Source: Minisyncoccota bacterium (lineage in GTDB: Bacteria > Patescibacteriota > Microgenomatia > UBA1400 > PJMF01). From it: 64,000 nt of DNA. The position numbers and the translations under genes were made by a program. The stretch is from positions 2,293 through 66,292 of the forward strand of contig JAAYYE010000013.1 in assembly GCA_012515515.1 (NCBI GenBank). The letters run 5' to 3'. Below, piece after piece: positions 44,176-58,719 of this stretch. Every line of letters begins with the position of its first letter. The stretch's first letter is position 1. The notes under the pieces were generated by a model, which did no database searches, was not told the origin of the DNA, and was given only the letters and a program-made list of their open reading frames with translations.

Positions 44176-44397
44176 ATGAGGATTACCGTCAATGTTCACC
44201 CCAACTCTAAGAGACCAAGAATAGAAAAAGATCTGTTGGGAATATTACGTGTTTATGTTATTCAACCACCTTTGCAAGGAAGAGCTAACAAAGCTGCTAT
44301 CGAGGCATTGGCTAAGCATTTTAAGACCAAAAAAAGCAGTATTTATCTAATATCTGGTATGAAATCAAAGATTAAAGTTTTTGAGGTGGGGGATTAA
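44176..44397 (+). CDS. DUF167 (YggU-like) small protein
   Basis: ...NVHPNSKRPRIEKDLLGILRVYVIQPPLQGRANKAAIEALAKHF... resembles the YggU/DUF167 family. 1-nt overlap (TAATG) with the next gene. Confidence 0.55.
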   Translation: MRITVNVHPNSKRPRIEKDLLGILRVYVIQPPLQGRANKAAIEALAKHFKTKKSSIYLISGMKSKIKVFEVGD

Positions 44398-45995
44398 TGG
44401 ATAAAAAATATAACTATTCAGCAATTTTTTGGGTATTAATTTTTGTATTAGCTTTGTCTCTTCGCTATTGGTATAGCAGCACCGAGCTGTGTTTTTATAC
44501 TGATCAGTCTAGAGATGCCATTGTTGTTAAGCAGATTATTCAGGGGGAGTGGAAACTATTTGGCCCCGTTGTTAATGGGCGCGGTGCAGTTTTTCATGGA
44601 GTACTATATTATTATCTAATAGCTCCGCTTTATGCTCTTGGAGGCGGAAACCCCCTTTTTGTAAGTATTGCACTTTCTTTGATCAGCACAATTGCTTTAA
44701 TTCCAACTTATTTTTTAGCAAAGGAAATTTTAAAAAGCAAAACACTGGCTTTTATCGTTATTGCTTTAATAAGTGTTTCCTTCACTAGTATTGAAACTAG
44801 TGCTTCGTTTTGGAACTTACAATTATCAATAATTTTCTTACCGATCTATTGTTTGTTCTTGCTGAAAATGTATAAAGAAATGAATGTTAAACACAGTCTT
44901 CTTGCTGGTTTAATGCTCGGCTTACTTATCCAATCAGGTTTTTCAAACATTCAATGGTTGTTGCCATACGCTGTAGTGATTGTTCTGTTGTTTTTTAAAC
45001 AAAAAGCGAAAGGCAAATATATCAAAAATTTGTTAATCAGCTTGCTTGGTCTGGGAATTACTACATCTTCGATGATTCTTGTTGAAATTTTAGCCTGGAA
45101 AAGAGGCTTATTTGCTTTGGAAGACTCTCTGCATTGGCTTACTGGAGCTGGTTTTTCACTGCAAAATTTTCAAGCAACTTTAATTTGGTGTTTTAATAGC
45201 ATAAATAATTTTCTCATACCGCAATTTCCTTTTATTACATTAGCAATAATCTTAATAGCAATTCTAGTAATTTTTATTTCAAGAAAAGATAGATCTTGGT
45301 TTTGTTTGGGACTTTTGTTGCTGACGCCAATTGCCGGCCAATTGGCCAGTAACGGTGCTGCATCATATATTTTAACTGGTTATGAAAGTATTTTTTATAT
45401 TTTTATAGTCTTAATTTTTTATAAAGTAATTAGATTCTTAGAAAAAAATACTTCTTTCAAGAATCAAACTGTGCTGTTATGTCTAATATTTACGATTTTT
45501 ATGATCAGCAACATCGCTATGTTACAAAAAGATAAAATTAGTAATAACACTCTTACCTGCATGTTGGAAAGCACTAGCCTAGAGGAACTCCAAGCAATTG
45601 ATTATACTTACCAGCAGGCTAATGGCGAAGCATTTTCGATTGATGTTGTGGCAGAGCCATATGGAATTAATACAAAATATGGCTATTTATATTCTTGGTA
45701 TGGGAAGAATAAATACGGTTATACACCTATGTTCAGTGGTGGATCACAAGATGGTTATATTGGGGAGGGCTTACTAGAAGAAGTGGACAGACACTCTCAG
45801 ATACATTTTATAATATACGAGCCAGGCACGTACAATTATTGGTTCCGAATAAGAACAGCTGATGAGCCAGCTACTAGAGAATCTTTAGAATTGTTTTATT
45901 ATCGCCAACCACCCATAGAATACCTGCAAGAAAACAAAGAATTTGGGGATCTTATTAAAGTTGATTATTATTTACTTCCTAAAGATGCTGATTAA
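44397..45995 (+). CDS. Polytopic membrane protein, possible GT-C (ArnT/PMT-like) glycosyltransferase
   Basis: About 11 hydrophobic segments in the first 400 aa followed by a soluble C-terminal domain. Architecture typical of GT-C. No decisive motif. Confidence 0.4.
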   Translation: MDKKYNYSAIFWVLIFVLALSLRYWYSSTELCFYTDQSRDAIVVKQIIQGEWKLFGPVVNGRGAVFHGVLYYYLIAPLYALGGGNPLFVSIALSLISTIALIPTYFLAKEILKSKTLAFIVIALISVSFTSIETSASFWNLQLSIIFLPIYCLFLLKMYKEMNVKHSLLAGLMLGLLIQSGFSNIQWLLPYAVVIVLLFFKQKAKGKYIKNLLISLLGLGITTSSMILVEILAWKRGLFALEDSLHWLTGAGFSLQNFQATLIWCFNSINNFLIPQFPFITLAIILIAILVIFISRKDRSWFCLGLLLLTPIAGQLASNGAASYILTGYESIFYIFIVLIFYKVIRFLEKNTSFKNQTVLLCLIFTIFMISNIAMLQKDKISNNTLTCMLESTSLEELQAIDYTYQQANGEAFSIDVVAEPYGINTKYGYLYSWYGKNKYGYTPMFSGGSQDGYIGEGLLEEVDRHSQIHFIIYEPGTYNYWFRIRTADEPATRESLELFYYRQPPIEYLQENKEFGDLIKVDYYLLPKDAD

Positions 45996-46073
45996 GTAAT
46001 TAGAATCTTTATTAACTCGCTGACCTTCAACTTCTCTTTTTACAAAGCTGATAACTTTTGATATAGTAGCCAC

Positions 46074-46343
46074 ATGAAAATTGAGACAGCTAAAAACATT
46101 TTAACTAAGTACGGTTGCCAAGTTCCCAAGGATTGCCAAGAAGCTAAAGCAATTTTGGATAAATATAGCAATGGAGAAATTGATTTTTGTGGCGATGGAA
46201 TTAACCAGCAAGCTGTTAGAGAAATTTATAATGCACTTAGCATAATTTTATGTTCTGAAATGGGTAAAGAAAATCGACCCGATCCAAAGCGAAAGGATCG
46301 CAAGGCTGCTGAGGAAAGAAAAAAACGCTTAAATATTCGCTAA
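46074..46343 (+). CDS. Hypothetical small protein with basic C-terminal tail
   Basis: 89-aa ORF. C-terminal RPDPKRKDRKAAEERKKRLNIR. Convergent with the giant gene. Confidence 0.3.
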   Translation: MKIETAKNILTKYGCQVPKDCQEAKAILDKYSNGEIDFCGDGINQQAVREIYNALSIILCSEMGKENRPDPKRKDRKAAEERKKRLNIR

Positions 46344-46357
46344 GTAAATTATTCTAA

Positions 46358-46407
46358 TGGTTTTATTGTTTCTCCCAAACAATTGGTTTTATTGTTGTTC
46401 CCAAACA
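46358..46407. repeat. Tandem pair of 25-nt hairpin-forming repeats between convergent genes (probable bidirectional terminator). Second copy overlaps the giant gene stop.
   Basis: GGTTTTATTGTTTCTCCCAAACAAT and GGTTTTATTGTTGTTCCCAAACAAT. Each contains ATTGTTT...AAACAAT inverted arms. Confidence 0.45.
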
Positions 46408-49400
46408 ATATTCATATCTTTGAGTTTGTAATTGGGACTATAAGAAAATATTTTTTCTTCTTCAAAACTAAAGGCTTTATTTATTTGCCGTACCCTTTCG
46501 TCCATAGCTTTTTCAAATTTTCCTCCGGTACGATTGGTTCTAATTGCTCCATTTTTTGATAATAAAATTTTATTAAAACCATTGTTTTTAGCAAAAGTTT
46601 CCAAAACTTTCATCAAGCCATTAAACATCGATGCTTCATCTGTAGAGTAGAGGAAAGTGCTAGAAGGATTTAGGGAAGCGCTGAGCACTTTTTCTCCTTT
46701 TTCCTCAAAATGATGTAGCAATACTAATCCAAGACAGCGATTAGTATCGGGATCTTGTAAAACGAGCTGAAAATAGTTCTCACTATCCCACATGTTTGGT
46801 TTTTGTTGTTCTGGACTTTGATTGGCAAGGGGGTTGTCTTGGCTTACACAAACTCCGCCCACCATTCTGGCATTAGCACTTTCCTTAGTTTTGGAAAAGA
46901 AGCCATTGATTACTTGTCTTTGTTTACCAGATTCGCTTTCAAATTTTGCCAACTCAGTTTCTAGCAGATTTTGTTCATCGGCAAATAAATTGACAAATCT
47001 TAAAGCAGTCAGGGCTTGAAATTGTTCTTCGTCATATTCGCCAGTATCGATTTTGGCTAAAGAAAGGGCTAAATCTTCCAAACTAGTATCGCCTAAACGA
47101 AATTCTTGCAAATTTAGGGAGTTTCCAGTTAGAGTTTCAACGGCCTCCATAGTTTTAGTTCTTTGAGCTTTGACCTGCCCATAAAATGCCCTAGTGCTGC
47201 TTTTTTCTGAAGTGCTATCAACACTTAAACCTTGAGTTAAATTTTCATAATAAAGAATTAATTTTTTGATAGTTTCCGGTGGATATTTTTTACCCATTCT
47301 TTTTTCGATAGTGCGACTGATTTGTGCAATAAAGCTGTCACTCATTCCCAAACGGTCAAGTCTAAACCTATTACTTTGATCACTCAGTTTTGCTTGAGCC
47401 TGTTCTTGAACAATTTTTGCAAAATATTCTTGCATTCTCTCTTTTAGCACTTGGTTTTCCCATCCAGCTTTGACTAAACGCCGATTGACCTCCTTAATCC
47501 GATCAGTAAAAAAACTGTGTAATTCACACATTAGGGCATATTCTTGATTGGAAGCTTGACTAACTCGATCAGTAGTGCCTTGGATGTAATCTCTAACATC
47601 TTCAAACAAAGCAAATTCATAACGCAAAATTAAGTCTTTTAACTCCTGATGGGGGACGGTTTTATCGGTATAAACAGAATCAGCTAAAAGAATAAACATT
47701 TTTTCGTCTAAAGTGTTTAATTGTTTAAGATCAAGATTTTTTAAACCACCCGCAGCCAATTTGTTTTCTAACAATGCATCAACTTTTTCTTCCAACTCTG
47801 TTTGAATTTTTTCTAAATCAAAGCTACTGGCTTTCATTTCCTCTGCCAAAGTTAAAATAGGTTTTTTCAGAGACTCAATAGCTGGCTCATTGATTACTTC
47901 ACCTTCTTTGACTTTAATTTTTGCCGCTGCCAACAAATCAATTTCATATTTTTGATCATAAGTAAACTGAGTTAAATCGGCAGTTCTGTCAACACAAGCT
48001 TTAGTTTTTGCCAAACCTCCCCAGTTTCCAGCATTATTAGGATAAACCGCTTTGAGCAGGTCATTGTAAAAGAGTTTTTGTCTATCTTGTTCAGGAATCG
48101 GTTCCGAGCTGATCATTTGGCTGCCTAGTTGTTGTAATTCTGCAACATAAGCCTCTTCTAAATTTCTCGCTTCAGCTTTTAAATAACCTTCAGCAATTGT
48201 TGGACTTAAAACTCTAAATTTTTGTGTAAAATTTAAAATTTTATTTCTATTTTCACTAGTAATGATACCTGCTTTTATACAAATCACATATTCGTCCAGA
48301 ATAGTTAAAGTTTTTTTACCATGAATCCCAATAAACCTGCTTAAAAATTTTAAATCTTCAGCATTGTTGGCAATATCTTTACCGTGATTAAAGATAAATA
48401 GTCTGAGACTTGCTTGGTCTTTATTAAAAAGATGGGGTAGAATTTTTATATAATCATAAGAAAGTTCGGGTTGAATTTGTCCTTGGCCAACTGCTTGTAA
48501 AACTTCCATGGAAATTTCCTGATCAGAATTGTTTTCAAGACATGTCTGATAAAATTTTGTTAAAAATTGTAGGCCCTCGTCGCTGACAAAATCAAATTTT
48601 GGACTACTTATGAGTATCAAGTGATCTTTATTTAGTAATTTAGGAGCATGTTCATAAAAATTTAAGGCGTTATTTTTAGAAAGTTTGCCATCCACCACAC
48701 TAGATAAAATTTTAACTAATGCTTCAGCATTGCTTGCTTGTGTACTGTCGCCATACTTGTCATCAAACTTTTGATAAAAATCCATACCTGATTTATTAAA
48801 AAAATATGGCAGTTTGTGTTGGAAAAATTGAAACTTCCGCCAATTCTTATTATTATTTAAACAAGGATATGAGTCATAAGCGTCAGCAAGAAAGTTTAAG
48901 TCTTCGATAGAGACCGAGTGCTTTCCACCACAGCTACCCACAATACCTATGAAGTCATAAGAAGTTAAAAACGAGAGTTTTTTTGGATTATCCTGATTTT
49001 TTTCCCACAACTCTGTTAAATATAGGAAAGTTCTAAGATTAGTTAATAAATCTAAATATTTATCACTTTGAGGATCGGCATTATTCAAGTTCTTTAAAAT
49101 ATTTCTAAATATATCTTCCCAATTTAGTAAATTCATTCTAATCTCATGGGCTTCTATTATTGATTCTAGATTGTCGTCATCAACTTGACTAAGTGTCAAC
49201 ACAAGATTGGATGCTCGTTGATAAGCCAAAACATCTTCTTGGCTAAGAATACCCTTAGTAAACGTTTCAGCAACTAGCGTATCATTGGTTAAAGAGTTTC
49301 GAGCCATTGTTCTTAAGCGATCGTCCTCAGATTTATCATCATAAATTCGTTTAGCTAATTGCGAGCTTGTTTCTTTAATATTTGGGTAGTTTTCGTATTC

Positions 49401-50927
49401 AGCAAAATCCCAATTAAGTAATAATTCTCGAATCTGACTTAATTCAGGATAGCTTTGGACTGCTTGCTCTAATAGTTCTGGCCAATCTGTTCTTTGAGCC
49501 AGTCGCTTGAGAGCAGCGTTGGCATGAATAAGTCGGTATCCCACCTGATCATTATCAGTAGCAGCGATGATAACTAAATTTTTAATAGTATTGGGAGTTG
49601 GATAATGAACCAACTTATCAATATAACCACCTTCAGTATCGCTTAATGATTGATCCATTAAAATTGTATAGATTTGATCATCAAAACTTTTAATTAAAGA
49701 AGCATATGTTGCCTGTGCTGTCTTTGATTTCTTAACAGCATTAAAATAACCCAAGTCCACTTGGTCTATAAACTCATCTACTTGCCAATTACCGTACCTG
49801 TTATAACCAGGTTGTAAATGTTTGCTTAAGTAGGGGATAAGCTTGTTTCTAATTTGATCGGGTAAATTTTCTAAGAAAGCTTGCTGAACTTCGCCTTCTT
49901 GGTCGTAAGCTAAGTCCATGAGTAAAGCCTGAATTATTTTTAGGTCTTCTTTTTGATATATGGATTGCAGCTGAGAGTCTACTGCATAAAAAGCAGAAGT
50001 GTTTTTTTCCATTTCCGCTCGCGCTTCTTGCTGTTTATCATCATTGCCGGCATTTCTAGCATCAATATATTTAGTCAAATTTTTCATGAACTTATCCACA
50101 TCTTGTTTGCTAAAATTTTCTCCCACCTGTGCTTCTAATTTAGTCAGGATTTCTGTATCAATGTATTCTTGAGTGATTTCTTGTCTAATCCAAGCTGAAT
50201 TTTCCACATTTTGTATAGGTTTTCTCCAGGCTTCCACCACTTGTTGAATATCTTCCTCTAAATAAAATGTGGCTTGAGTGGCTGAATATTGATCAAGCTT
50301 TATATTTGCATCTTCAATCGACTCGAGTTGTGATTCAAGCTTCTGCAATTCTTCGTTTAATTGTTCTTTCTCTGTTTGATAATTTTTTTCAACCAATTGT
50401 TGGCTAGATTCTTGGCTAGTGCTGAATATGCTTCTAATTTGTTTGGCAATTTTTTTATACCAGCTTGCCGAAGACGACTCTTCACTATCTCTGATTAGTT
50501 CTTGCTCTTGCTGGCGCTTTAATTCTGCTAGTGCCAAATCAAGCTCTGAAACTTGTTTTTCAAGTTGCAAAATGCTTTCTTTCAGAGAATTTTCTTCAAT
50601 AGTTAGTCGAGATTGGGCCTGATTAAGCGCTGGCCAATCAAGGTTTTCTGCTTTGACATTCTGCTGGAGTTGTTCGTCTGTGGGCACAGCTGCCAGAGCT
50701 ACTTCTAGGGAAAGCTCGCTGTGATCTTGATCTAGCTTAGGAATTAAATTCTGTTTAAAAGCTTCTAACTTTTTTTTGATGTTGGCAGTAATTAATTGAG
50801 CTTGAACAACTTCAGGATCCATTTTGGCTTCAGCTGGTCGCTGAACTTCATCTGTTAAAGGATTATTAACATTGGCTTGCTGATTGGCATTATTAAGTGA
50901 ATCCTTCATTAAGTTTAATCCTATCAA
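46389..50927 (-). CDS. Giant (1512 aa) cytoplasmic coiled-coil-rich protein with a distinct C-terminal globular Cys/His-containing domain
   Basis: No signal peptide or TM. N-terminal 350 aa heptad-like (LQLEKQVSELDLALAELKRQQEQE...). C-terminal about 170 aa ...MVGGVCVSQDNP...NRCLGLVLLHHFEEKGEK...IRTNRTGGKFEKAM... Asn/Lys-rich composition. Confidence 0.55.
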   Translation of the reverse strand: MIGLNLMKDSLNNANQQANVNNPLTDEVQRPAEAKMDPEVVQAQLITANIKKKLEAFKQNLIPKLDQDHSELSLEVALAAVPTDEQLQQNVKAENLDWPALNQAQSRLTIEENSLKESILQLEKQVSELDLALAELKRQQEQELIRDSEESSSASWYKKIAKQIRSIFSTSQESSQQLVEKNYQTEKEQLNEELQKLESQLESIEDANIKLDQYSATQATFYLEEDIQQVVEAWRKPIQNVENSAWIRQEITQEYIDTEILTKLEAQVGENFSKQDVDKFMKNLTKYIDARNAGNDDKQQEARAEMEKNTSAFYAVDSQLQSIYQKEDLKIIQALLMDLAYDQEGEVQQAFLENLPDQIRNKLIPYLSKHLQPGYNRYGNWQVDEFIDQVDLGYFNAVKKSKTAQATYASLIKSFDDQIYTILMDQSLSDTEGGYIDKLVHYPTPNTIKNLVIIAATDNDQVGYRLIHANAALKRLAQRTDWPELLEQAVQSYPELSQIRELLLNWDFAEYENYPNIKETSSQLAKRIYDDKSEDDRLRTMARNSLTNDTLVAETFTKGILSQEDVLAYQRASNLVLTLSQVDDDNLESIIEAHEIRMNLLNWEDIFRNILKNLNNADPQSDKYLDLLTNLRTFLYLTELWEKNQDNPKKLSFLTSYDFIGIVGSCGGKHSVSIEDLNFLADAYDSYPCLNNNKNWRKFQFFQHKLPYFFNKSGMDFYQKFDDKYGDSTQASNAEALVKILSSVVDGKLSKNNALNFYEHAPKLLNKDHLILISSPKFDFVSDEGLQFLTKFYQTCLENNSDQEISMEVLQAVGQGQIQPELSYDYIKILPHLFNKDQASLRLFIFNHGKDIANNAEDLKFLSRFIGIHGKKTLTILDEYVICIKAGIITSENRNKILNFTQKFRVLSPTIAEGYLKAEARNLEEAYVAELQQLGSQMISSEPIPEQDRQKLFYNDLLKAVYPNNAGNWGGLAKTKACVDRTADLTQFTYDQKYEIDLLAAAKIKVKEGEVINEPAIESLKKPILTLAEEMKASSFDLEKIQTELEEKVDALLENKLAAGGLKNLDLKQLNTLDEKMFILLADSVYTDKTVPHQELKDLILRYEFALFEDVRDYIQGTTDRVSQASNQEYALMCELHSFFTDRIKEVNRRLVKAGWENQVLKERMQEYFAKIVQEQAQAKLSDQSNRFRLDRLGMSDSFIAQISRTIEKRMGKKYPPETIKKLILYYENLTQGLSVDSTSEKSSTRAFYGQVKAQRTKTMEAVETLTGNSLNLQEFRLGDTSLEDLALSLAKIDTGEYDEEQFQALTALRFVNLFADEQNLLETELAKFESESGKQRQVINGFFSKTKESANARMVGGVCVSQDNPLANQSPEQQKPNMWDSENYFQLVLQDPDTNRCLGLVLLHHFEEKGEKVLSASLNPSSTFLYSTDEASMFNGLMKVLETFAKNNGFNKILLSKNGAIRTNRTGGKFEKAMDERVRQINKAFSFEEEKIFSYSPNYKLKDMNIVWEQQ

Positions 50928-51085
50928 ATATGAGGGCTGGGCTACAAGGGGGAGCTGGTGGGGGGGATTTTAGCTTTTGTACAAAATTGTTCAAAGAGGA
51001 GTTGGGAGAATTTTGTAGTAGTCAAATTAATGAATCAAAGATTTAATACAAGCCTAAAAAATATATTACTGTATAATCAGAAGTA

Positions 51086-51433
51086 ATGTCGAAAATTAAA
51101 GAACTTACTCAAAGATTAATTGATTTTCGTGAAGTTCGCAATTGGAAACAATTCCATAGCCCAAAGAATTTAGCAGAATCAATTTCTATAGAAGCAAATG
51201 AGCTGCTAGAACACTTTCAGTGGTTGGATTTAGAAGAAAGTAAAAGATATAGTGTGGAACACAAGCAAGAACTAGCAGAAGAAATTGCTGATGTTCTGAA
51301 TTATCTAGTTTTATTAGCTCATGACCTAGACATTGATTTGATTGAAGCTGCAATTAAAAAAATAGAGATAAATAATAAGAAATATCCAATAAAAAAGTCA
51401 AAAGGTATAAGCACAAAATATAATAGATTATAG
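51086..51433 (+). CDS. MazG-like / DCTPP1-like all-alpha NTP pyrophosphohydrolase
   Basis: FREVRNWKQFHSPKNLAESISIEANELLEHFQW ... EEIADVLNYLVLLAHDLDIDL ... NNKKYP aligns motif-by-motif with the DCTPP1/MazG-like family (RDWEQFHQPRNL...GELAELFQW...ELSDVLIYLV...RYP). Confidence 0.75.
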   Translation: MSKIKELTQRLIDFREVRNWKQFHSPKNLAESISIEANELLEHFQWLDLEESKRYSVEHKQELAEEIADVLNYLVLLAHDLDIDLIEAAIKKIEINNKKYPIKKSKGISTKYNRL

Positions 51434-51442
51434 AATTACAAA

Positions 51443-53305
51443 ATGGTTGTTTATAAAAATACAGCTACTGGATTTTGCTACGACGTTGAGACCAATAAGA
51501 TAGCTGACAGCATAGAATTAGCTTTCAAAAATAGTCTTGGTCGAAAAGTAAATCCCAGTGAAAAAAGTGCTTGGATAAACTCCATGTCATTTATGGAAAG
51601 AATAGTTCGTAATTCTGGAGTGGCTCAAGACTGTGGGGTTTTAATAGAATATAATATTCCAGCTACTTCTAAAAGAATAGATTTCATAATTGCTGGTTGC
51701 GACAGTGAAAACAAAAAAAAATTTGTTATTGTTGAACTTAAACAATGGCAGCTAGCGCATAACACTTTTAAAGATGGGCTTGTAACTAGTTTTTTTAGAG
51801 GTGGCGAAAGAGAAACTCCACATCCGTCTTATCAAGCATACTCTTACAAAAGTTTCTTAAAAGACTATAACGAGAATATTTATAACGGTAAAATTAATCC
51901 CTATTCATGTGCATATTTACACAATTATAAGGAAAAACACCCAGAGCCTCTAAAAGCTGATATATATAAAGAATATGTAGCTGATTCTCCAATTTACTTT
52001 CAAGATGACTTTGAAAAGTTAGCAAATTTTATAAAAATGCATGTTGGTAATGGCGGTGGGGAAGAAATTCTTTATGACATAGAGTCGGGGAGAATCAGGC
52101 CTAGTAAAAGATTAATTGACTGCGTAAACGCAATGTTTAAAGGCAATCAAGAATTTATTCTGTTGGACGAACAAAAGGTTGCCTATGAAACAGCTCTTCA
52201 TAATGCTATCAATAGTAAAGAAAAAACTGTGATTATTGTTAAAGGTGGCCCCGGCACTGGCAAATCAGTTGTTTCAATGAATTTATTTGGAGGATTACTC
52301 ACTAAACAGTTAAATACAGTTTTTGTAGCACCCAATGCCGCTTTTAGAAGTGTAATGAAACATAAATTAGCTGGAGAGGAAAGGAGAGAGAGATTAAATC
52401 ATTTGTTTAAAGGTTCGGCAGCTTTCTACGGATTACAAGATAACGTTTATGACGCAATTGTTGTTGATGAAGCGCATCGTTTAAAAAATTATAAAGCTTA
52501 CCAATATTTTGGACAAAATCAAATTGAAGATATTGTGAAGGCTGGTAAAACTAGTATTTTTTTTGTTGACGAAAATCAAATTATTCGTCCAGAAGACATA
52601 GGTTCGATTGAAGAAATTAAAAAAATAGCCAATCAACAACATGCAACAATTAATGAAATAGAACTACAGGCTCAATTTAGATGTTCTGGTTCAGACGGAT
52701 ATATAAATTGGTTAGATAATACTTTAAGAATCAAAGAAACAGCAAATTTTGATGGCTGGGAAGACAAAAACTTTGAATTTATTATTTTTGATGATCCGAA
52801 TGATTTAAGGCAAGCTATTAAGAATAAACAAAATCAGGGGTTTGATGCTCAATTGTTAGCAGGATACGCTTGGAAATGGACGAGTGCAAAAGAAGGCAAC
52901 TCTAATTCTCAGAGTGAAGATGTCCAGATACCAGAATACAACTTTAGTATGCCTTGGAATTCACGAAAAGCTGGGTCAAATTGGGCAATTGATGAAAGTA
53001 GCCATGAACAAATTGGTTGTGTGCATACAAGTCAAGGTTTAGAATTTGATTATGTGGGTGTAATCGTTGGCAATGATCTGCGCTTTGATAAAGAAAAATT
53101 TGAGTATTTTGTTCCCTGGAACTCTTATAAAGATATGGCTGGAAAAAAGGGTTTAAAAAATGAACCTGAAAAGCTATGCTTATTGGTAAAAAATATTTAT
53201 AAAATTTTAATGACCAGAGGTATTTATGGTTGCTATGTTTTTTTTCAAGACAAAAATTTGAAAGAGTTTATTGAAAGTAGATTGAAAAACGATTCATACA
53301 AGTAA
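51443..53305 (+). CDS. DUF2075-type protein: N-terminal PD-(D/E)xK nuclease-like domain fused to a Schlafen-like/SF1-like P-loop ATPase
   Basis: Putative nuclease core KRIDFIIAG...FVIVELKQW (D...ExK). Walker A VKGGPGTGKSVV. Walker B DAIVVDEAHRL. C-terminal CVHTSQGLEFDYVGVIVG typical of the DUF2075 / UvrD-like C-terminal region. 9 nt downstream of the MazG-like gene. Confidence 0.7.
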   Translation: MVVYKNTATGFCYDVETNKIADSIELAFKNSLGRKVNPSEKSAWINSMSFMERIVRNSGVAQDCGVLIEYNIPATSKRIDFIIAGCDSENKKKFVIVELKQWQLAHNTFKDGLVTSFFRGGERETPHPSYQAYSYKSFLKDYNENIYNGKINPYSCAYLHNYKEKHPEPLKADIYKEYVADSPIYFQDDFEKLANFIKMHVGNGGGEEILYDIESGRIRPSKRLIDCVNAMFKGNQEFILLDEQKVAYETALHNAINSKEKTVIIVKGGPGTGKSVVSMNLFGGLLTKQLNTVFVAPNAAFRSVMKHKLAGEERRERLNHLFKGSAAFYGLQDNVYDAIVVDEAHRLKNYKAYQYFGQNQIEDIVKAGKTSIFFVDENQIIRPEDIGSIEEIKKIANQQHATINEIELQAQFRCSGSDGYINWLDNTLRIKETANFDGWEDKNFEFIIFDDPNDLRQAIKNKQNQGFDAQLLAGYAWKWTSAKEGNSNSQSEDVQIPEYNFSMPWNSRKAGSNWAIDESSHEQIGCVHTSQGLEFDYVGVIVGNDLRFDKEKFEYFVPWNSYKDMAGKKGLKNEPEKLCLLVKNIYKILMTRGIYGCYVFFQDKNLKEFIESRLKNDSYK

Positions 53306-53309
53306 TTTC

Positions 53310-53495
53310 TTATTCTTTTAGTAATTTAGATTCATTGGTGAATCTGTTAATTGATATTTTTTTGAGAATTTTTTTACCCCGCTTGGTGTCAAAATGAATG
53401 ATTTTTAATTTTTGTTTTTTATTAATAAAGCGAAATTGACGTAATTTTAAATCTACAGTATATTTTTCAAAAGTTGGAAGCTTTGTTATTGCCAT
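53310..53495 (-). CDS. Hypothetical small basic (Lys-rich) protein
   Basis: 61-aa ORF MAITKLPTFEKYTVDLKLRQFRFINKKQKLKIIHFDTKRGKK... Start codon abuts a perfect palindrome. Confidence 0.3.
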   Translation of the reverse strand: MAITKLPTFEKYTVDLKLRQFRFINKKQKLKIIHFDTKRGKKILKKISINRFTNESKLLKE

Positions 53496-53525
53496 TGTAA
53501 CTATTTTTTAAAAAAATAGTTACAA
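53495..53525. promoter_or_regulatory. Perfect 31-bp palindrome (15-nt arms), putative operator
   Basis: TTGTAACTATTTTTT-A-AAAAAATAGTTACAA, followed by an extra GTTACAA half-site copy at about 53530-53536. Confidence 0.4.
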
Positions 53526-53588
53526 TTGTTGTTACAAATTAAAAAAATCACTTGCTGCATTTAATGTAAACTTATTCTAATTAATTTC

Positions 53589-53747
53589 TCACCCTCTCTC
53601 CCAATCCAATTCATCAATTAAGCCCTCGGCATTGTCTAGGTCACCTAGGTCAATTAATTCCTCGATTTCAGCACTTTCGTCATCTGTTAGCAGCTCTTCT
53701 ATATCCCCAAGCCTTGATGTCAGCTCATCTTGTCTTTCTACATCCAT
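53589..53747 (-). CDS. Possible small highly acidic protein (52 aa), not in the ORF track
   Basis: Hand translation gives MDVERQDELTSRLGDIEELLTDDESAEIEELIDLGDLDNAEGLIDELDWERG*. Divergent from the DUF2779 gene. Could be non-coding. Confidence 0.25.
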   Translation of the reverse strand: MDVERQDELTSRLGDIEELLTDDESAEIEELIDLGDLDNAEGLIDELDWERG

Positions 53748-53769
53748 TCTTTAATTATATAATCAAGTT

Positions 53770-55341
53770 ATGACCATTTCCAAATCCGATTACATGCTTT
53801 TTCTTCGCCATCCGGCTTGGTTGTGGCTTAAAAAACACCAGCCCCAGCGTTTGCCCGAAGCCGATGCCAATCTCCAGGATATTTTTGCCAGTGGCCATCA
53901 ATTTGAGGCTTATGCGGAACAGCTTTTTCTTGGTGCCGTTAAATTGGGCTTTGCTGGCTATGATCAATATTTGAGCCTGCCAGAGAAAACTCAAGCCTTA
54001 ATTGACCAGCACACTCCCTGTATTTTGCAGGGGAGGCTAGAAGTTGATGGTCTGACTTGTATTTTTGATGTGTTGGAGCGGGTGGATGAGCAGACTTTTA
54101 ATTTAATTGAAATCAAATCTAGTACTAAGGCAAAAAACGTTCATCTTTACGATTTAGCTTTTCAAAGCTTGATTTTAGAGCGTTTGGGCTGGCAGGTGGG
54201 GGAGATTAGTGTGTTGCACGCTAATAAAGATTATCTGCGCCAAGGGGCAATTGATCCCGAGCAGTTGTGTAGTCGTAGTGAGGTCACTCAAGAGGTAAAA
54301 GCCCTTTTACCACAGACTAAAGACTTAGTTGAGCTAGCCAAAACTGTGCTCAAGCAGCCAGAGCCACCGTCTTTTTCACCCAGTTTAGTTAATATGGCTG
54401 GGGTAAAAGAGACCAACTGGCTCAAAGAGTGGTTGGCTATTTATTTACAAGAACTCCATCCAGATTTAAACAAATACAATATTTATCAGTTAGCTGGAGC
54501 AAAAGCCGAGCAATTGGGCAAACTCGAAAAGCAGGGCATTCAGCTCTTAGCCGATATTCCTGACGAATTAACCCTCGGCACTAAACAAAAGTTGCAAATC
54601 CAGACCACTCGGACTGCTCAGCCCTTGATTAATCAGTTGGCAGTTAAGGATTTTTTAGCCAGTTTGCACTATCCTTTATATTTTTTAGATTATGAAACGA
54701 TGACCTCAGTCATTCCTTTTTTTGACGGGATGAGGCCTTATCAGGATTATCCTTTTCAGTATTCGCTACATTTATTAAGGGAACCTGCTAGCAAATTAGA
54801 GCATTTTGCCTATTTGCATCAAGACAAGAGCAATCCTTTGCCAGGATTAATTGCTCAATTAAAGCAGGATTTGGCTGAGCAGGGTAGTATTCTGACCTGG
54901 AACATGAGCTATGAAAAGGGTTGTCACCAGCGCTTGGCCGATTTTTGTCCAGAGAAAGCGGAGTTTTTTGAGCAAGTTAATGAGCGCATTGTGGATTTGA
55001 TGACCGTCTTTAAAAACTTAGATTTTGTCGATCGAGATTTTATGGGCAGTGCTAGTTTGAAAAATGTTTTGCCCGTTTTAGTTCCCGAATTAAGTTACGC
55101 TGATTTAAATGTTAGCGATGGCATGTTCGCTAGACGGCTGTGGACAGACACTATTTTGCTAGGTAAAAATAAGCGGGAGAAAGAGGCAATTTTGCAAGAT
55201 TTGCTGGATTATTGTACTCTAGATACCTACGGCATGGTTCGGATTTTAGAGCTGTTGGAGAGGGTGGTGGAGGTGGAAAAGGCGGAGGGGGTGGAAAAGA
55301 TGAAAAAGGTGGAGAGCGCCACTCACACGCCCGACATGTGA
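53770..55341 (+). CDS. DUF2779-like protein: N-terminal RecB/Cas4-like PD-(D/E)xK nuclease plus C-terminal DnaQ-like (DEDD) 3'-5' exonuclease domain
   Basis: N-terminus MTISKSDYMLFL (DUF2779 ISKS signature). Nuclease motifs FDVLERVD...LIEIKSS and QSLILERLGW (QxxxY-like). C-terminal YFLDYETMT (Exo I DxE), WNMSYEKG (Exo II-like) and LLDYCTLDTYGMVRIL (Exo III Y...D). Confidence 0.6.
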   Translation: MTISKSDYMLFLRHPAWLWLKKHQPQRLPEADANLQDIFASGHQFEAYAEQLFLGAVKLGFAGYDQYLSLPEKTQALIDQHTPCILQGRLEVDGLTCIFDVLERVDEQTFNLIEIKSSTKAKNVHLYDLAFQSLILERLGWQVGEISVLHANKDYLRQGAIDPEQLCSRSEVTQEVKALLPQTKDLVELAKTVLKQPEPPSFSPSLVNMAGVKETNWLKEWLAIYLQELHPDLNKYNIYQLAGAKAEQLGKLEKQGIQLLADIPDELTLGTKQKLQIQTTRTAQPLINQLAVKDFLASLHYPLYFLDYETMTSVIPFFDGMRPYQDYPFQYSLHLLREPASKLEHFAYLHQDKSNPLPGLIAQLKQDLAEQGSILTWNMSYEKGCHQRLADFCPEKAEFFEQVNERIVDLMTVFKNLDFVDRDFMGSASLKNVLPVLVPELSYADLNVSDGMFARRLWTDTILLGKNKREKEAILQDLLDYCTLDTYGMVRILELLERVVEVEKAEGVEKMKKVESATHTPDM

Positions 55342-55505
55342 CTATGAGCGCAGTAAAAGAGTTTTTGCCAATCTAAGCGAGCTAGCGAATAGCAGCCAAA
55401 GATAAAATTATCTTAGATATAAAGAATGATTATTTTAGCTTATTACAGTATAAAATATAGTCATTATAGTATAAAATGTAGAGGCTATAAAAATAAAAGG
55501 ATTTT

Positions 55506-56723
55506 ATGGTCATTTCCAAAAAAACCAATTTTTTTATTTCCTTTGTTATTGTTTTTTCAGTATTATTGATTGGTTTTGGCTACAAATATAATGAGTGGTA
55601 TGTATTAAATTACTTAAATAATTTGCAAAGAGAGGCCGACCTTGCTGAATTGAAATTAATAGAAAAAAGCAACATACTAGCGCAGGACGATGAAGCGGTT
55701 AATGTTTTTATCGATTCTTTAACAGAAGAGCCTGATGTTATTGAAAGTAATTACAAAAAATTTAATTCTTATTTTTATTTAAACAAAATTACACATGAAG
55801 AGTACTATAAGCTTTTGCTTGATAACTATCATAAATATCAAAAAATAAATAAAAGAGCCACATTCTTACTTGGTTCAAAAAAAGAATTTGTCAATGAATT
55901 TCTTGATCTTACGAGCAATTATTATGAAAATGAGATAGAAAATAATGAAAATATAACAATATCGATAGCTTTTACGGAGAATCTTTATAAATTGTTAAAG
56001 GATCGATTAATTATTGAATATTATTTTTCTATATCTGATGATTTAGACGATCTAGCTAGCAACTTTGGACAAATTTCTAGTGCAGAAAAATACACGCATA
56101 CTGATTTTAAATTTGATCAAGAAGATGCAATTAGTTCTTATTATACTTCTGGATCAGAGTTACTAGACATTAATAAAAACTATATTTCTAGTTTATATTT
56201 GATTGCTAAAGACGTGGCAGCTGGTAATTATGAATCTGCAAGGTATAAACATGCTAGCCTGACGAATCAGGCAGCTGATTCTAACATTGATACTGACGAT
56301 GCATTTAGTGAAAACGAAGAGAGCAAAAGGAGATTGAGCCAAGAAATTGCGGCAATTAATATTAAAAAAATATTATTATTAGACGATTTGAATAAAAATC
56401 CCATTGATAATTATCCTTTTGTTGAATCATTAAAACCTTGGGAGGTTGATGCCCTTATTTGTAATTTATCTTGGTATAAAACCTCAATCTATGAAGATGT
56501 ATTTGATGAGATACCGATTGTTGATAATTTAGAAAACTTAATTGCTGAATTAAATAAAGTTCCACCAAGCACTGAACAACTAAGCGCAATTGTCAATTAT
56601 GAAACAAATAAAATTGAGTATGACACAGAAAATGGCAAATTAAGATTTATTTGTAAAGCAAATACCACAGGAGAAGAACTTGTTTTTATAACAGATTTAC
56701 CTCCTGCAGAAGAAAATGAGTAA
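55506..56723 (+). CDS. Hypothetical N-terminally anchored protein, very Asn/Lys/Ile/Tyr-rich
   Basis: 405-aa ORF. TM FFISFVIVFSVLLIGF. 8-nt overlap with the next ORF. Confidence 0.45.
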   Translation: MVISKKTNFFISFVIVFSVLLIGFGYKYNEWYVLNYLNNLQREADLAELKLIEKSNILAQDDEAVNVFIDSLTEEPDVIESNYKKFNSYFYLNKITHEEYYKLLLDNYHKYQKINKRATFLLGSKKEFVNEFLDLTSNYYENEIENNENITISIAFTENLYKLLKDRLIIEYYFSISDDLDDLASNFGQISSAEKYTHTDFKFDQEDAISSYYTSGSELLDINKNYISSLYLIAKDVAAGNYESARYKHASLTNQAADSNIDTDDAFSENEESKRRLSQEIAAINIKKILLLDDLNKNPIDNYPFVESLKPWEVDALICNLSWYKTSIYEDVFDEIPIVDNLENLIAELNKVPPSTEQLSAIVNYETNKIEYDTENGKLRFICKANTTGEELVFITDLPPAEENE

Positions 56724-58611
56724 ACTAGCTCACTTAGTTTTTAAAATTAAACCCTTTCTTTTAATTATTTTTATTTTATTGTTGTTGTTAATTTTGTCTT
56801 ATGTTTATAAAGATTTATTTTATGTTGTCTTAGCAGCTTTGATTATTATTTTTCTCCTTCTTAAAAAAGTTTTATCTCAGGCGAAATTTTTAAAATCAAA
56901 AAAAAAGATAAAAGAAAAAAAACCAAAGGCGAAATCTACAGACATCAATTTTGAGAAGACTTTTAAATTAAGTAAGCGATTAATTAAAAAACCAAAAAAA
57001 ATTGTATTTTTTTTGGTCGGCTTGTTGGTTTGTTTACTTGTTTATTTACTTATTTTTGTATTTAAAGTAGGCGATATAGGCGATTTTAGTTTTTTTTCAG
57101 ACACCCTTAACAATGTTATTTCAATTTTCCAAAACCTTTATCTCATTGCTTCTTTCGGTCTAATATTTTTAGTTTTTTTAATTTATTTTATTAAACAAAA
57201 ATCAAGTGTTATCAGCAAGTTTATTCATTTTATTATTTATTTATTTATTGCCGTCTTTATCGCTTTTTTCCTAGTTTTTACCCTAACATTCTTTTATAAA
57301 AATTATTTATTATGGAGAATGCCTTCTTCAAACTCGATCATAATTGATTCCGATTTGATTAATGAAGAACTACGAAAAATGGACAAACCACCCACAGTCT
57401 TAGTTTCTTTTGAGGATCTTGGTTCAGAAATTCATCATGCCTATTTAGCGAGTCAAGTTGCTTTTGGCAATAGTTATTTTAAAAATCTTGTGTCTATAAG
57501 TCCAACTTTCATCGAGACAGACACTACTTTTGCAGAAGCGAAAGCAGTTTTAATAGAAAATCAATTGATATTTCCAAAAATAGATAAAGACACAATTGAA
57601 AAACTAAGTCCTAATTTGGGGAAGCTTTATGTGCAATCTTATTTGGAAGATAAATATGTAAAAGAATTACCAACAGTTACTGTTCTAGGCAGACAAGATT
57701 ATCTTTCATATCGAGCAGACATGATAAATGACCAAGTTCTTGAGTTAGAAGAGATAAGCGCCAAACTACAATCAGAATTAAATGGTGTTTACGGAATGAT
57801 CAATGAAGCCGAGAGGGCAATTTCACAAAACGAATACTATATTCAAGAGGCTACTTTAAGAAGAACGAGCGATTACGATTATTGTATGACTGCTGGATAT
57901 TATTCATATTATTTGGAAGTTTTTTATCGAACATACAGCGACTCAACATGTGAAAGTGAATGGAATCAATGGTCGGCTATTATCCAAGAATATTATGATA
58001 ATATTGATAGCTTAAACCAAACAATAGCTTGGGCTAGACAAGAAGCAGCCTTTTACAAAGAAACTTTGCAAGAGTTCGATGCCTATATTTCATTAATAGA
58101 GTCCCAAAAAGAAGCAACAGTTTATGAATTAGGCCTATTTGAACCTGGTGAAAATATAAAAATCGCATTAGATAACACTGGCGCCAATTCTTTAGCTGAT
58201 TATTTATCGACTTTGGTGCACGAATATTTTCACTATACAAGCTATGTTTCAGATGAAAAAGTTTTGCCACTTTTTTTTGAGGAGGGCTTAACCGAATATT
58301 TTGCTAGAAAATCAATTGAACAAGAATTAAAAATTAGCACGGAGTTGGGCTATCCAGTAATAGTAACAATAATTAACAAAATGGTTGATGATATTGGCTT
58401 AGATAAGCTACAAAATATCTATTTAACTAAGAGTAAAGATGTGCTTATTGCAGAACTCAATCAGGCTTATGGAGATACTTTTTATGAAGATACTGAGTAC
58501 TTTTTTATGCTAATGCTTTATTTGGGGATAGAAGATCAATTGGGAATAGCTAATAATATCCTTTTTAGAATTGGAGGGGACCAATTAAATCTAGAAGACT
58601 ATAAAATTTAA
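56716..58611 (+). CDS. Polytopic membrane protein with C-terminal gluzincin-like HExxH...E metallopeptidase motif
   Basis: At least five hydrophobic segments in the first 200 aa. LVHEYFHYTSYVSDEKVLPLFFEEGLTEYFA (HExxH + EG(L)TxYF, reminiscent of the M1-type (W/F)xxEGxAxY third-ligand motif). Confidence 0.5.
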   Translation: MSKLAHLVFKIKPFLLIIFILLLLLILSYVYKDLFYVVLAALIIIFLLLKKVLSQAKFLKSKKKIKEKKPKAKSTDINFEKTFKLSKRLIKKPKKIVFFLVGLLVCLLVYLLIFVFKVGDIGDFSFFSDTLNNVISIFQNLYLIASFGLIFLVFLIYFIKQKSSVISKFIHFIIYLFIAVFIAFFLVFTLTFFYKNYLLWRMPSSNSIIIDSDLINEELRKMDKPPTVLVSFEDLGSEIHHAYLASQVAFGNSYFKNLVSISPTFIETDTTFAEAKAVLIENQLIFPKIDKDTIEKLSPNLGKLYVQSYLEDKYVKELPTVTVLGRQDYLSYRADMINDQVLELEEISAKLQSELNGVYGMINEAERAISQNEYYIQEATLRRTSDYDYCMTAGYYSYYLEVFYRTYSDSTCESEWNQWSAIIQEYYDNIDSLNQTIAWARQEAAFYKETLQEFDAYISLIESQKEATVYELGLFEPGENIKIALDNTGANSLADYLSTLVHEYFHYTSYVSDEKVLPLFFEEGLTEYFARKSIEQELKISTELGYPVIVTIINKMVDDIGLDKLQNIYLTKSKDVLIAELNQAYGDTFYEDTEYFFMLMLYLGIEDQLGIANNILFRIGGDQLNLEDYKI

Positions 58612-58719
58612 AGTAAAAATCAACATTTTAAAATATTTTCTTTATAAGCTCCTAGCACACCAACATAAAGTTATCATAAAGTTTTTCTAAAAACTTGCAA
58701 TTATGCTACACTAAACCTA

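Follow-up and report, generated by a model that had tools for sequence, protein, structure and literature searches.

In the classification of the RNase H-like superfamily by Majorek et al. (2014), DUF2779 is family F.17 of the 3'-5' exonuclease clade and co-occurs with DUF83, a PD-(D/E)XK domain. A homologue from the minimal cell JCVI-syn3.0, MMSYN1_0389, was matched by HHpred to a Cas4-Cas1 structure (7MID, 2e-6) and to the repair exonuclease MrfB (5e-7), and it keeps the catalytic residues, with a Tyr at the position of the DEDDh histidine and two of the four Cas4 cysteines (mSphere 2026). Here we describe a member of this family encoded in a 64,000-nucleotide stretch of a Minisyncoccota bacterium contig (JAAYYE010000013.1, positions 2,293 to 66,292; hereafter the window), where it appears in the list of open reading frames (ORFs) at 53770..55341 on the + strand and is 523 aa long. 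The window is chromosomal, carrying leucyl- and threonyl-tRNA synthetase genes and six tRNA genes, and its closest relatives are metagenome-assembled genomes (MAGs) of Patescibacteria, also known as the Candidate Phyla Radiation (CPR). An earlier note, made from the letters of the window, had read the protein as two nucleases in one polypeptide; that architecture was already published, so the core of the note is a correct rediscovery. What our analysis adds to the literature we found is modest, namely a pattern of defence and NTPase genes next to DUF2779 across phyla and a clade-wide loss of the Cas4-type cysteines.

By its sequence, the protein is a full-length DUF2779 member with two putative nuclease active sites in a single chain and no motor domain. 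The profile search that the earlier note had proposed matched the protein to DUF2779 with 125.6 bits (gathering cut-off 23.3; E=1.9e-36), covering residues 304-429 and all of the profile (positions 1-126 of 126); the correct accession is PF11074, the PF10926 of the note being wrong. Homologues are colinear with the window protein over residues 1-500 in a single stretch, with the Cas4-like half first and the DUF2779 exonuclease half second. A word-indexed search returned more than 2,000 homologues of full length, those listed being about 500 aa long and 52-92% identical, and an exhaustive search returned 6,966 clusters (50% identity) at E up to 1e-3 and 1,903 at E up to 1e-30. On the + strand, the gene can be divided into a Cas4/RecB-like PD-(D/E)xK nuclease domain (residues ~1-200, 53770..54369), assigned from the PADLOC Cas4 match, Foldseek and invariant columns, a helical middle region (residues ~201-296, 54370..54657) taken from the secondary structure of an AlphaFold2 model with a predicted local distance difference test score (pLDDT) above 90, and an RNase H-like DEDDy 3'-5' exonuclease domain (residues ~297-501, 54658..55272) assigned from Pfam, Foldseek and invariant columns. 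Profile matches outside DUF2779 are faint. The Pfam Cas_Cas4 profile (PF01930) scores 13.6 bits over residues 98-182, below its gathering cut-off of 22.7 (E=0.073), and is recorded for about one sixth of the close homologues among the 120 matches listed, while the best PADLOC Cas4 model reaches E=2.4e-4 over residues 89-182. RNase_H_2 (PF13482) remains below threshold (E=0.016, residues 360-496), and the 650-position NCBIfam model of the UU173 family aligns only over its positions 340-443, at 35.6 bits against a cut-off of 225. A PHROG profile search of the protein gave no match. A phage origin of the gene was considered and dropped, since a search of phage genomes found no DUF2779 homologue.

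The residues expected of both active sites are present and strongly conserved. All of the motifs quoted in the earlier note occur in the protein: ISKSDY at residues 3-8, D100 followed by E114-I-K116, Q132, LDYET at 306-310, WNMSYEKG at 377-384 and LDTYG at 484-488. An alignment of 71 representatives that are 30-53% identical to the window protein contains 12 invariant columns, and nine of these correspond to D100, K116, Q132, D307, E309, E382, D409, Y481 and D485; because nine of only 12 invariant columns fall at these residues, we take the motifs to exceed chance. In the N-terminal nuclease domain, the key residues H43/E46 (53896-53907, + strand, as are all residues located here) precede the invariant D100 (54067-54069), the E114-I-K116 motif of the PD-(D/E)xK site (54109-54117), whose E114 is kept in 70 of 71 relatives, and the invariant Gln motif residue Q132 (54163-54165). 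The note had likened the last of these to a QxxxY motif, which holds for the Gln alone, as the position four residues on is Leu or Val rather than Tyr. In the C-terminal domain, the DEDDy motifs comprise Exo I, D307-Y-E309 (54688-54696), Exo II, N378-M-S-Y-E382 (54901-54915), in which the acid is Glu instead of Asp, and Exo III, Y481-C-T-L-D485 (55210-55224), with D409 (54994-54996) as an extra invariant acid. The note's Exo III motif, LDTYG, does contain the catalytic Asp (D485), but its Tyr is not the catalytic one, the pair being Y481-x3-D485 within DYCTLD. The Tyr in Exo III is what assigns this half to the DEDDy type.

An AlphaFold2 model built from 42 homologues (mean pLDDT 92, predicted template modelling score 0.86) places these residues at plausible positions on both predicted folds. 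D100 is modelled between strands 95-98 and 101-104, in a gap of two residues, E114 and K116 fall at the end of strand 109-116, and Q132 sits in helix 123-138. D307 and E309 are on the first strand (303-311) of the C-terminal domain, N378-x2-Y-E382 is at the start of helix 379-392 after the fourth strand, and Y481-x3-D485 is in the final helix. Foldseek searches of the Protein Data Bank (PDB) matched the N-terminal half to Cas4 (8d3l_I, E=7e-4, then 4r5q and 4ic1), human Exo5 (7lw7) and the nuclease domains of AdnAB, and matched the C-terminal half to RNase T (3v9u, E=3.6e-3, probability 0.98) and to MAEL domains. Taken together, Pfam, the invariant columns, Foldseek and two papers support the dual-nuclease claim of the earlier note, with PD-(D/E)xK and DEDDy halves that both retain an intact set of catalytic residues.

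One feature of the Cas4-like half sets the window protein apart from most of its family. The earlier note had remarked on the absence of a Cys cluster, and the alignment bears this out: the protein has six cysteines (84, 97, 167, 385, 393 and 482), none of which is at the family's Cas4-type 1+3 positions, and only C97 and C482 are invariant among the Cys of its clade. In 47 of the 71 relatives, a Cys at column 14 is combined with at least three Cys within columns 198-232, the 1+3 arrangement, whereas the 17 sequences nearest the window protein have His at column 14 and none to two Cys within columns 198-232. In the window protein itself, H14 (53809-53811, + strand) stands in place of the family's N-terminal cluster Cys, and the family's Cys columns 203, 205, 208, 222 and 229 are occupied by S, S, N, L and L. 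To judge from these columns, the window's Patescibacteria clade has lost a Cas4-type four-Cys iron-sulphur (Fe-S) site that most of the family, about two thirds, has kept. The middle region of the protein, which takes up the stretch where other members have three cluster Cys, contains a segment with two Trp residues invariant in the clade, W217 and W221 (54418-54432, + strand), and these Trp residues may fill the vacated cluster site. The partial Cys loss in the Mycoplasma homologue parallels the loss in the window's clade. A loss confined to one clade provides a natural comparison for the role of the Fe-S cluster in this nuclease fold.

The wider setting of the family was examined in 80 loci, each with flanks of up to 10 kb, drawn from contigs representing one genome per species. 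No single neighbour is conserved, the commonest neighbour cluster being found in 12 of the 80 loci, yet the neighbours are of a consistent kind. Of 72 upstream genes, 64 are co-directional with DUF2779; the gap has a median of 15 nt and does not exceed 50 nt in 44 cases. By our tally of Pfam family counts, about half of the upstream neighbours are restriction-modification (R-M), helicase or defence proteins. These include ResIII/HsdR (10), UvrD-type (6-7) and HerA/DUF87 (5) families, together with MmeI/Eco57I/N6 methylase-restriction fusions, GmrSD, DUF4365, AAA_13 and reverse transcriptases, and the PADLOC models matched by neighbours are REase_I, HerA and GajB. Several arrangements resemble complete modules with DUF2779 at their end. 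Co-directional strings of SIR2, HerA (DUF87) and DUF2779 are found in loci L009 (6930-11509), L038 (7104-11476), L047 (6872-11500) and L070 (6971-11488), and in truncated form in L043, placed after type I R-M genes or after PLD-SNF2 and Eco57I-like methylase genes. Two independent metagenome contigs carry GajA - GajB - DUF2779 (L093, with GajA called from Pfam AAA_15 and an OLD-like TOPRIM) and HsdM - HsdS - HsdR - DUF2779 with a 1-nt overlap (L096; Shedu and a recombinase are close by). The genes downstream encode, among others, a trypsin-like protease (8 loci), Mrr, GmrSD, NERD, SMODS and HEPN proteins, and serine recombinases and type IV secretion system (T4SS) pilin genes are frequent in the vicinity. 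In seven loci (L004, L008, L009, L010, L011, L012 and L032), a 363-aa secreted-looking protease of the trypsin-like type follows DUF2779 at about 30-1750 nt, and in six of them (not L009) the next gene encodes a 361-aa protein that has several CxxC pairs and matches no Pfam family. Six genomes hold two DUF2779 copies that are 66-95% identical.

Beyond Patescibacteria, 32 plasmids from many phyla carry a DUF2779 homologue at 25-31% identity, in hosts that include Burkholderiales, Sphingomonadales and cyanobacteria, and its surroundings there resemble those in Patescibacteria. On an Aliarcobacter plasmid, DUF2779 follows a Qat system, with an SF1 helicase and a dGTPase following. Plasmids of the Burkholderiales Diaphorobacter and Rhodoferax carry a compact co-directional trio of a tandem-AAA+ ATPase, DUF2779 and a WYL gene, of which a Sphingobium plasmid has a variant in which the WYL gene comes upstream and the ATPase is encoded on the other strand (trio coordinates: L089 4736-9470; L090 4851-9465; L091 4495-8476); this trio looks like a discrete regulated module. 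Other plasmids place DUF2779 beside a GHKL ATPase, a DEAD helicase and a PLD protein (Planktothrix), a ClpB-like AAA+ protein (Helicobacter), or NERD, AAA and metallophosphoesterase genes (Selenomonas). Close homologues also occur in Omnitrophota, in Dormibacterota and on a 4.9-Mb Hyphomicrobiaceae contig, which suggests horizontal spread. Taxonomic labels need care here. L005/L032 (JACKFW010000001.1) and several TPA_asm records are labelled Pseudomonadales or Gammaproteobacteria and have CPR-like gene content; many such MAG records are evidently Patescibacteria, and their labels are unreliable. An association with CRISPR was also considered and was rejected, as the window has no CRISPR array and the neighbours include no Cas families.

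Characterised Cas4/RecB-type nucleases act on DNA ends and single strands with 5'-3' polarity, while DEDDy exonucleases, a group that includes RNases, act 3'-5'. For the DUF2779 protein we infer enzymatic activities, polarity, a DNA substrate, cooperation with neighbours and a defence phenotype, which combine into the reading that we favour and regard as moderately probable: a motor-less exonuclease of two polarities, resident in defence islands, that breaks down DNA ends when the cell is in conflict with phages or mobile elements. The N-terminal Cas4/RecB-type site (E46, D100, E114, K116, Q132) would act 5'-3' on DNA ends or single strands and the C-terminal RNase H-fold DEDDy site (D307, E309, E382, Y481, D485) 3'-5', so that the protein, its halves joined by the helical region, would degrade both strands from a DNA end. 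The substrate would be DNA unwound, nicked or cut by neighbouring systems based on an NTPase or helicase, a proposal we make because the gene so often lies directly after helicase, translocase and endonuclease systems, and the role would be either accessory to those systems or that of an independent resident of the same islands.

Several observations weigh against this reading. Structure prediction, which the earlier note had suggested as a check, produced the matches to Cas4 and RNase T, but it lends modest support to the DEDD subclass. When the exonuclease domain was modelled by itself, from a shallow alignment of 14 sequences (pLDDT 73), the E values against RNase HI, RNase T and integrases reached only about 0.03-0.1. 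When the C-domain alignment was compared by hhalign with three E. coli enzymes (Klenow exonuclease, RNase T and DnaQ) and a control, RNase HI, nothing significant emerged; only the Exo I stretch aligned ('FDTET' with 'LDYET', E=0.25). Sequence and profile searches of the PDB gave nothing significant either, their one suggestive match being to the Exo II part of a putative Pol I (9qhs, E=1.4). PADLOC-DB v2.0.0 has no model for the protein beyond the weak Cas4 matches, and we found no report in the literature of an enzymatic activity, a defence phenotype or a defined role for any DUF2779 member. As a control we took, for each locus, the longest ORF lying 5.5 kb or more away; about 25% of these were still R-M genes, beside housekeeping genes, which indicates that the islands are long and means that the enrichment has no clean genome-wide background rate to stand against. 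In five Saccharibacteria loci DUF2779 has typA/bipA and a RecD-like helicase as stable neighbours, and in the window's own lineage it stays beside a gene for a 312-aa protein across 70% identity while the upstream genes are swapped, so the DUF2779 gene could border a hotspot instead of belonging to it. Finally, MMSYN1_0389 is quasi-essential in JCVI-syn3.0 (mSphere 2026), and a transposon mutant of the Mycoplasma bovis homologue (Mbov_0804) was among the growth-impaired mutants in a cell-culture screen; together these suggest a housekeeping role in Mollicutes.

A rival reading is a housekeeping nuclease for DNA-end processing or repair in small genomes that lack RecBCD/AddAB-type enzymes, possibly working with a separate helicase, whose proximity to defence genes would be incidental or due to shared substrates. 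Quasi-essentiality, MrfB as the best HHpred match of the exonuclease half, the growth-defect screen in M. bovis, which hit the homologue alongside recD and holA, the RecD-like helicase and bipA context in Saccharibacteria and the fixed place beside the 312-aa gene in the window and its two relatives all speak for such a role, as does the very high conservation of the protein, which keeps 52-57% identity over many Patescibacteria lineages. It fits poorly with two diverged copies in six genomes, with plasmid carriage in many phyla, with the operon-style coupling to HsdR, GajB, HerA and AAA+ genes in many unrelated contexts, and with the horizontal spread suggested by the homologues in Omnitrophota, Dormibacterota and the Hyphomicrobiaceae contig; on balance we consider it rather unlikely, and the possibility raised by the earlier note that the protein would prove to be a conserved core gene with a known repair role was not borne out. 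A nuclease for nucleotide salvage or RNA turnover, which would degrade imported or damaged DNA or RNA where nucleotides are not made de novo (Patescibacteria, Mollicutes) and whose DEDDy half may act on RNA like RNase D or Rrp6, would account for the abundance of the family in reduced genomes and draws further support from the RNases among DEDDy enzymes, from the nanoRNase and c-di-AMP phosphodiesterase mutants recovered in the same M. bovis screen, and from the inability of CPR bacteria to synthesise nucleotides. We judge it improbable, given that the family also occurs in large free-living genomes and on plasmids (Burkholderiales, Sphingomonadales, cyanobacteria), that its N-terminal half resembles DNA-specific enzymes, and that DNA-targeting systems dominate its neighbourhood.

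A further alternative, the model of the earlier note, concerns the window itself and makes DUF2779 the third component of a single system with the MazG-like gene (51086-51433, +; Pfam MazG-like 4.2e-16) and the DUF2075/SLFN-type helicase gene (51443-53305, +; Pfam SLFN-g3_helicase 2.5e-92) that precede it. In its favour, both the window and the 90%-identical relative L001 have these genes as neighbours, DUF2779 genes often lie beside a helicase or an ATPase gene, and DUF2075 belongs to the SF1-type helicases, the pair (51086..53305) having PADLOC matches to PDC-S41, AbiO and Nhi. The DUF2779 gene does lie downstream of DUF2075 after two tiny ORFs, as noted, but across a gap of 464 nt and with both ORFs on the opposite strand. 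By tblastn, MazG, DUF2075 and both small ORFs occur in one of the 80 loci, L001, and MazG and DUF2075 are absent from the other 79, so the synteny check that the note had proposed went against it. The L001 spacer is moreover interrupted by a 2-kb insertion (L001 7869-9796, corresponding to window ~53567-53580) with a C5 DNA methyltransferase gene (319 aa) and a convergent 270-aa ORF without a Pfam match, which may be a type II R-M pair, and L002, the 70%-identical relative, has type I R-M genes (HsdS, HsdR) upstream of DUF2779 where the window has MazG-DUF2075. Base composition also differs, with 42.5% G+C in the DUF2779 gene against 32.4% in MazG-DUF2075. On grounds of synteny, spacing and composition we reject a functional unit with this pair, which we regard as very improbable, and conclude that the DUF2779 gene is its own unit, probably transcribed alone, in a patch that varies between close relatives. 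The DUF2075 helicase of the window fits the general pattern of NTPase neighbours and is not a conserved partner; the note's 'nuclease-rich island' holds loosely, in that the family as a whole lies in defence-gene arrays near helicases and ATPases.

Having weighed these alternatives, we return to the defence-island exonuclease. The window gene is an ordinary member of a family with a published architecture, and it is the family-wide context that makes a defence role testable: DUF2779 comprises about 7,000 clusters at 50% identity, appears from sequence to have two intact active sites, and lies immediately after complete defence or NTPase modules in several phyla. If this placement reflects function, DUF2779 would be a common nuclease, accessory or stand-alone, that present catalogues of defence systems lack, and would bear on how reduced genomes dispose of restricted DNA. 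A bolder proposal, tentative and in our view doubtful, is that DUF2779 is a widespread unlisted effector of defence islands that plugs into type I R-M, Gabija, SIR2-HerA and AAA+ systems with a WYL regulator, the Patescibacteria clade being an Fe-S-independent version. If true, DUF2779 would finish off DNA attacked by those systems in small genomes, much as RecBCD does after restriction in E. coli.

The boundaries of the gene deserve comment at both ends. A database copy of the protein (P0001) has 515 aa, implying a start at Met9 (window 53794); we prefer the ATG at 53770 (M1) as the true start because the N-terminal SKSDY motif is kept across homologues. A TATAAT hexamer (53757..53762, +) lies 7 nt 5' of this ATG, with no Shine-Dalgarno sequence, and may be the gene's own promoter, weakly suggesting a leaderless or near-leaderless mRNA; our promoter scan listed no + strand site at the hexamer. 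The 48 nt 5' of the ATG are still alignable with L002. The hexamer and the lack of a Shine-Dalgarno sequence hint at a separate, possibly leaderless transcript. At the other end, the 22 residues 502-523 lie outside the family fold and are found in this genome only. This tail, VEKAEGVEKMKKVESATHTPDM plus the stop codon (55273..55341, +), is predicted to be disordered, with pLDDT below 50 at residues 504-523. In blastn comparisons of the window with both relatives, homology to L001 and L002 stops at 55272 and 55270, respectively, and the junction alignment has a TGA stop in L001 against GGTGGA in the window. An imperfect G-rich tandem repeat of 18 nt, or six codons, at 55256-55327 (TGGAGAGGGTGGTGGAGG / TGGAAAAGGCGGAGGGGG / TGGAAAAGATGAAAAAGG; repeat family D7) takes the place of the relatives' stop codon and yields the VE-rich 22-residue tail.

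Exactly at the 3' end of DUF2779, a low-G+C (29.5%) segment of 3.4 kb is inserted (55273..58649, +) that is absent from L001 and L002, in which a 312-aa membrane protein gene, found downstream of DUF2779 in the window as well, follows DUF2779 directly (compared junctions: L001 11501-11623, L002 11499-11552). Its two ORFs, of 405 and 631 aa, have no Pfam, PHROG or PADLOC match and are predicted from sequence to be of membrane type. A 21-nt direct repeat, ATTACAGTATAAAATATAGTC, is present twice at 55442-55489, shortly before the 405-aa ORF, and its copies overlap several promoter-like hexamers. On the other side, the spacer between DUF2075 and DUF2779 holds the two small minus-strand ORFs, of 61 aa (53310-53495) and 52 aa (53589-53747), which have no family match and recur in L001 only. 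The 52-aa product is 92% identical in L001 and has Asp or Glu at 21 of its 52 residues (40%); the ORF could encode a small acidic protein, for instance an antitoxin or a DNA mimic, or be non-coding. A perfect palindrome, GTAACTATTTTTT/AAAAAAATAGTTAC, lies at 53499-53526 just upstream of the start of the 61-aa ORF. Farther out, in the comparison of window 44392-50975 with L001 517-5260, a 1512-aa ORF (46389-50927, -) and the 532-aa ORF preceding it have no L001 counterpart, from which we draw the extent of the variable patch as about 44 kb to 59 kb. The 1512-aa ORF has no Pfam, PADLOC or PHROG match, and at the same place L001 has a 1474-aa ORF on the other strand that is apparently unrelated (a separate blastp cluster).

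Among known proteins, the nearest to the window protein are its DUF2779 relatives, MMSYN1_0389, Mbov_0804 and the UU173 family, which have the same two-domain layout of about 500 aa without a motor domain and share the catalytic residues D/E/K and D-E-E/D-Y-D, the Mollicutes proteins being longer. The window protein differs in belonging to a Patescibacteria clade without any of the four cluster cysteines, in its H14 and Trp segment, and in having a 22-residue tail of its own. With Cas4 (SSO0001, 4IC1; type I-C, 8D3L), Exo5 and AddB/AdnAB it shares a PD-(D/E)xK core in which D...ExK is followed by a Gln. Most DUF2779 relatives, but not the window protein, also have the 1+3 Cys pattern that is typical for Cas4, AddB and Exo5; unlike Cas4, the window protein further scores below threshold for Cas_Cas4, has neither cas genes nor a CRISPR array in the window, and is fused to a second nuclease. 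The DEDD exonucleases, among them RNase T, the proofreading domains of Pol I and Pol B, RNase D and MrfB, share Exo I DxE, Exo II Nx2Y-acid and Exo III Yx3D in canonical order and on the canonical structural elements; the window protein departs from them in its Exo II Glu and the extra invariant D409, and the similarity is too low for direct detection by sequence.

The same two nuclease folds are combined in TM0106/COG2251, a RecB-like putative nuclease with a Cas4-like domain and PF13482 (RNase_H_2), which as family F.13 belongs to the same exonuclease clade as F.17 (Majorek et al. 2014). Its exonuclease half falls in another Pfam family, and it often comes with ATPase modules of its own, whereas DUF2779 has none; on the Sphingobium plasmid, a TM0106 gene lies 2 kb from the DUF2779 gene. 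In RecBCD, AddAB, AdnAB and MrfA-MrfB, a motor feeds DNA ends to nuclease domains of the RecB family, which act on them. DUF2779 can be likened to these helicase-nuclease machines by its helicase and ATPase neighbours only, as it has no helicase domain and is not a member of the group, and, unlike in RecBCD, AddAB and AdnAB, the family of its partner NTPase varies from one locus to the next.

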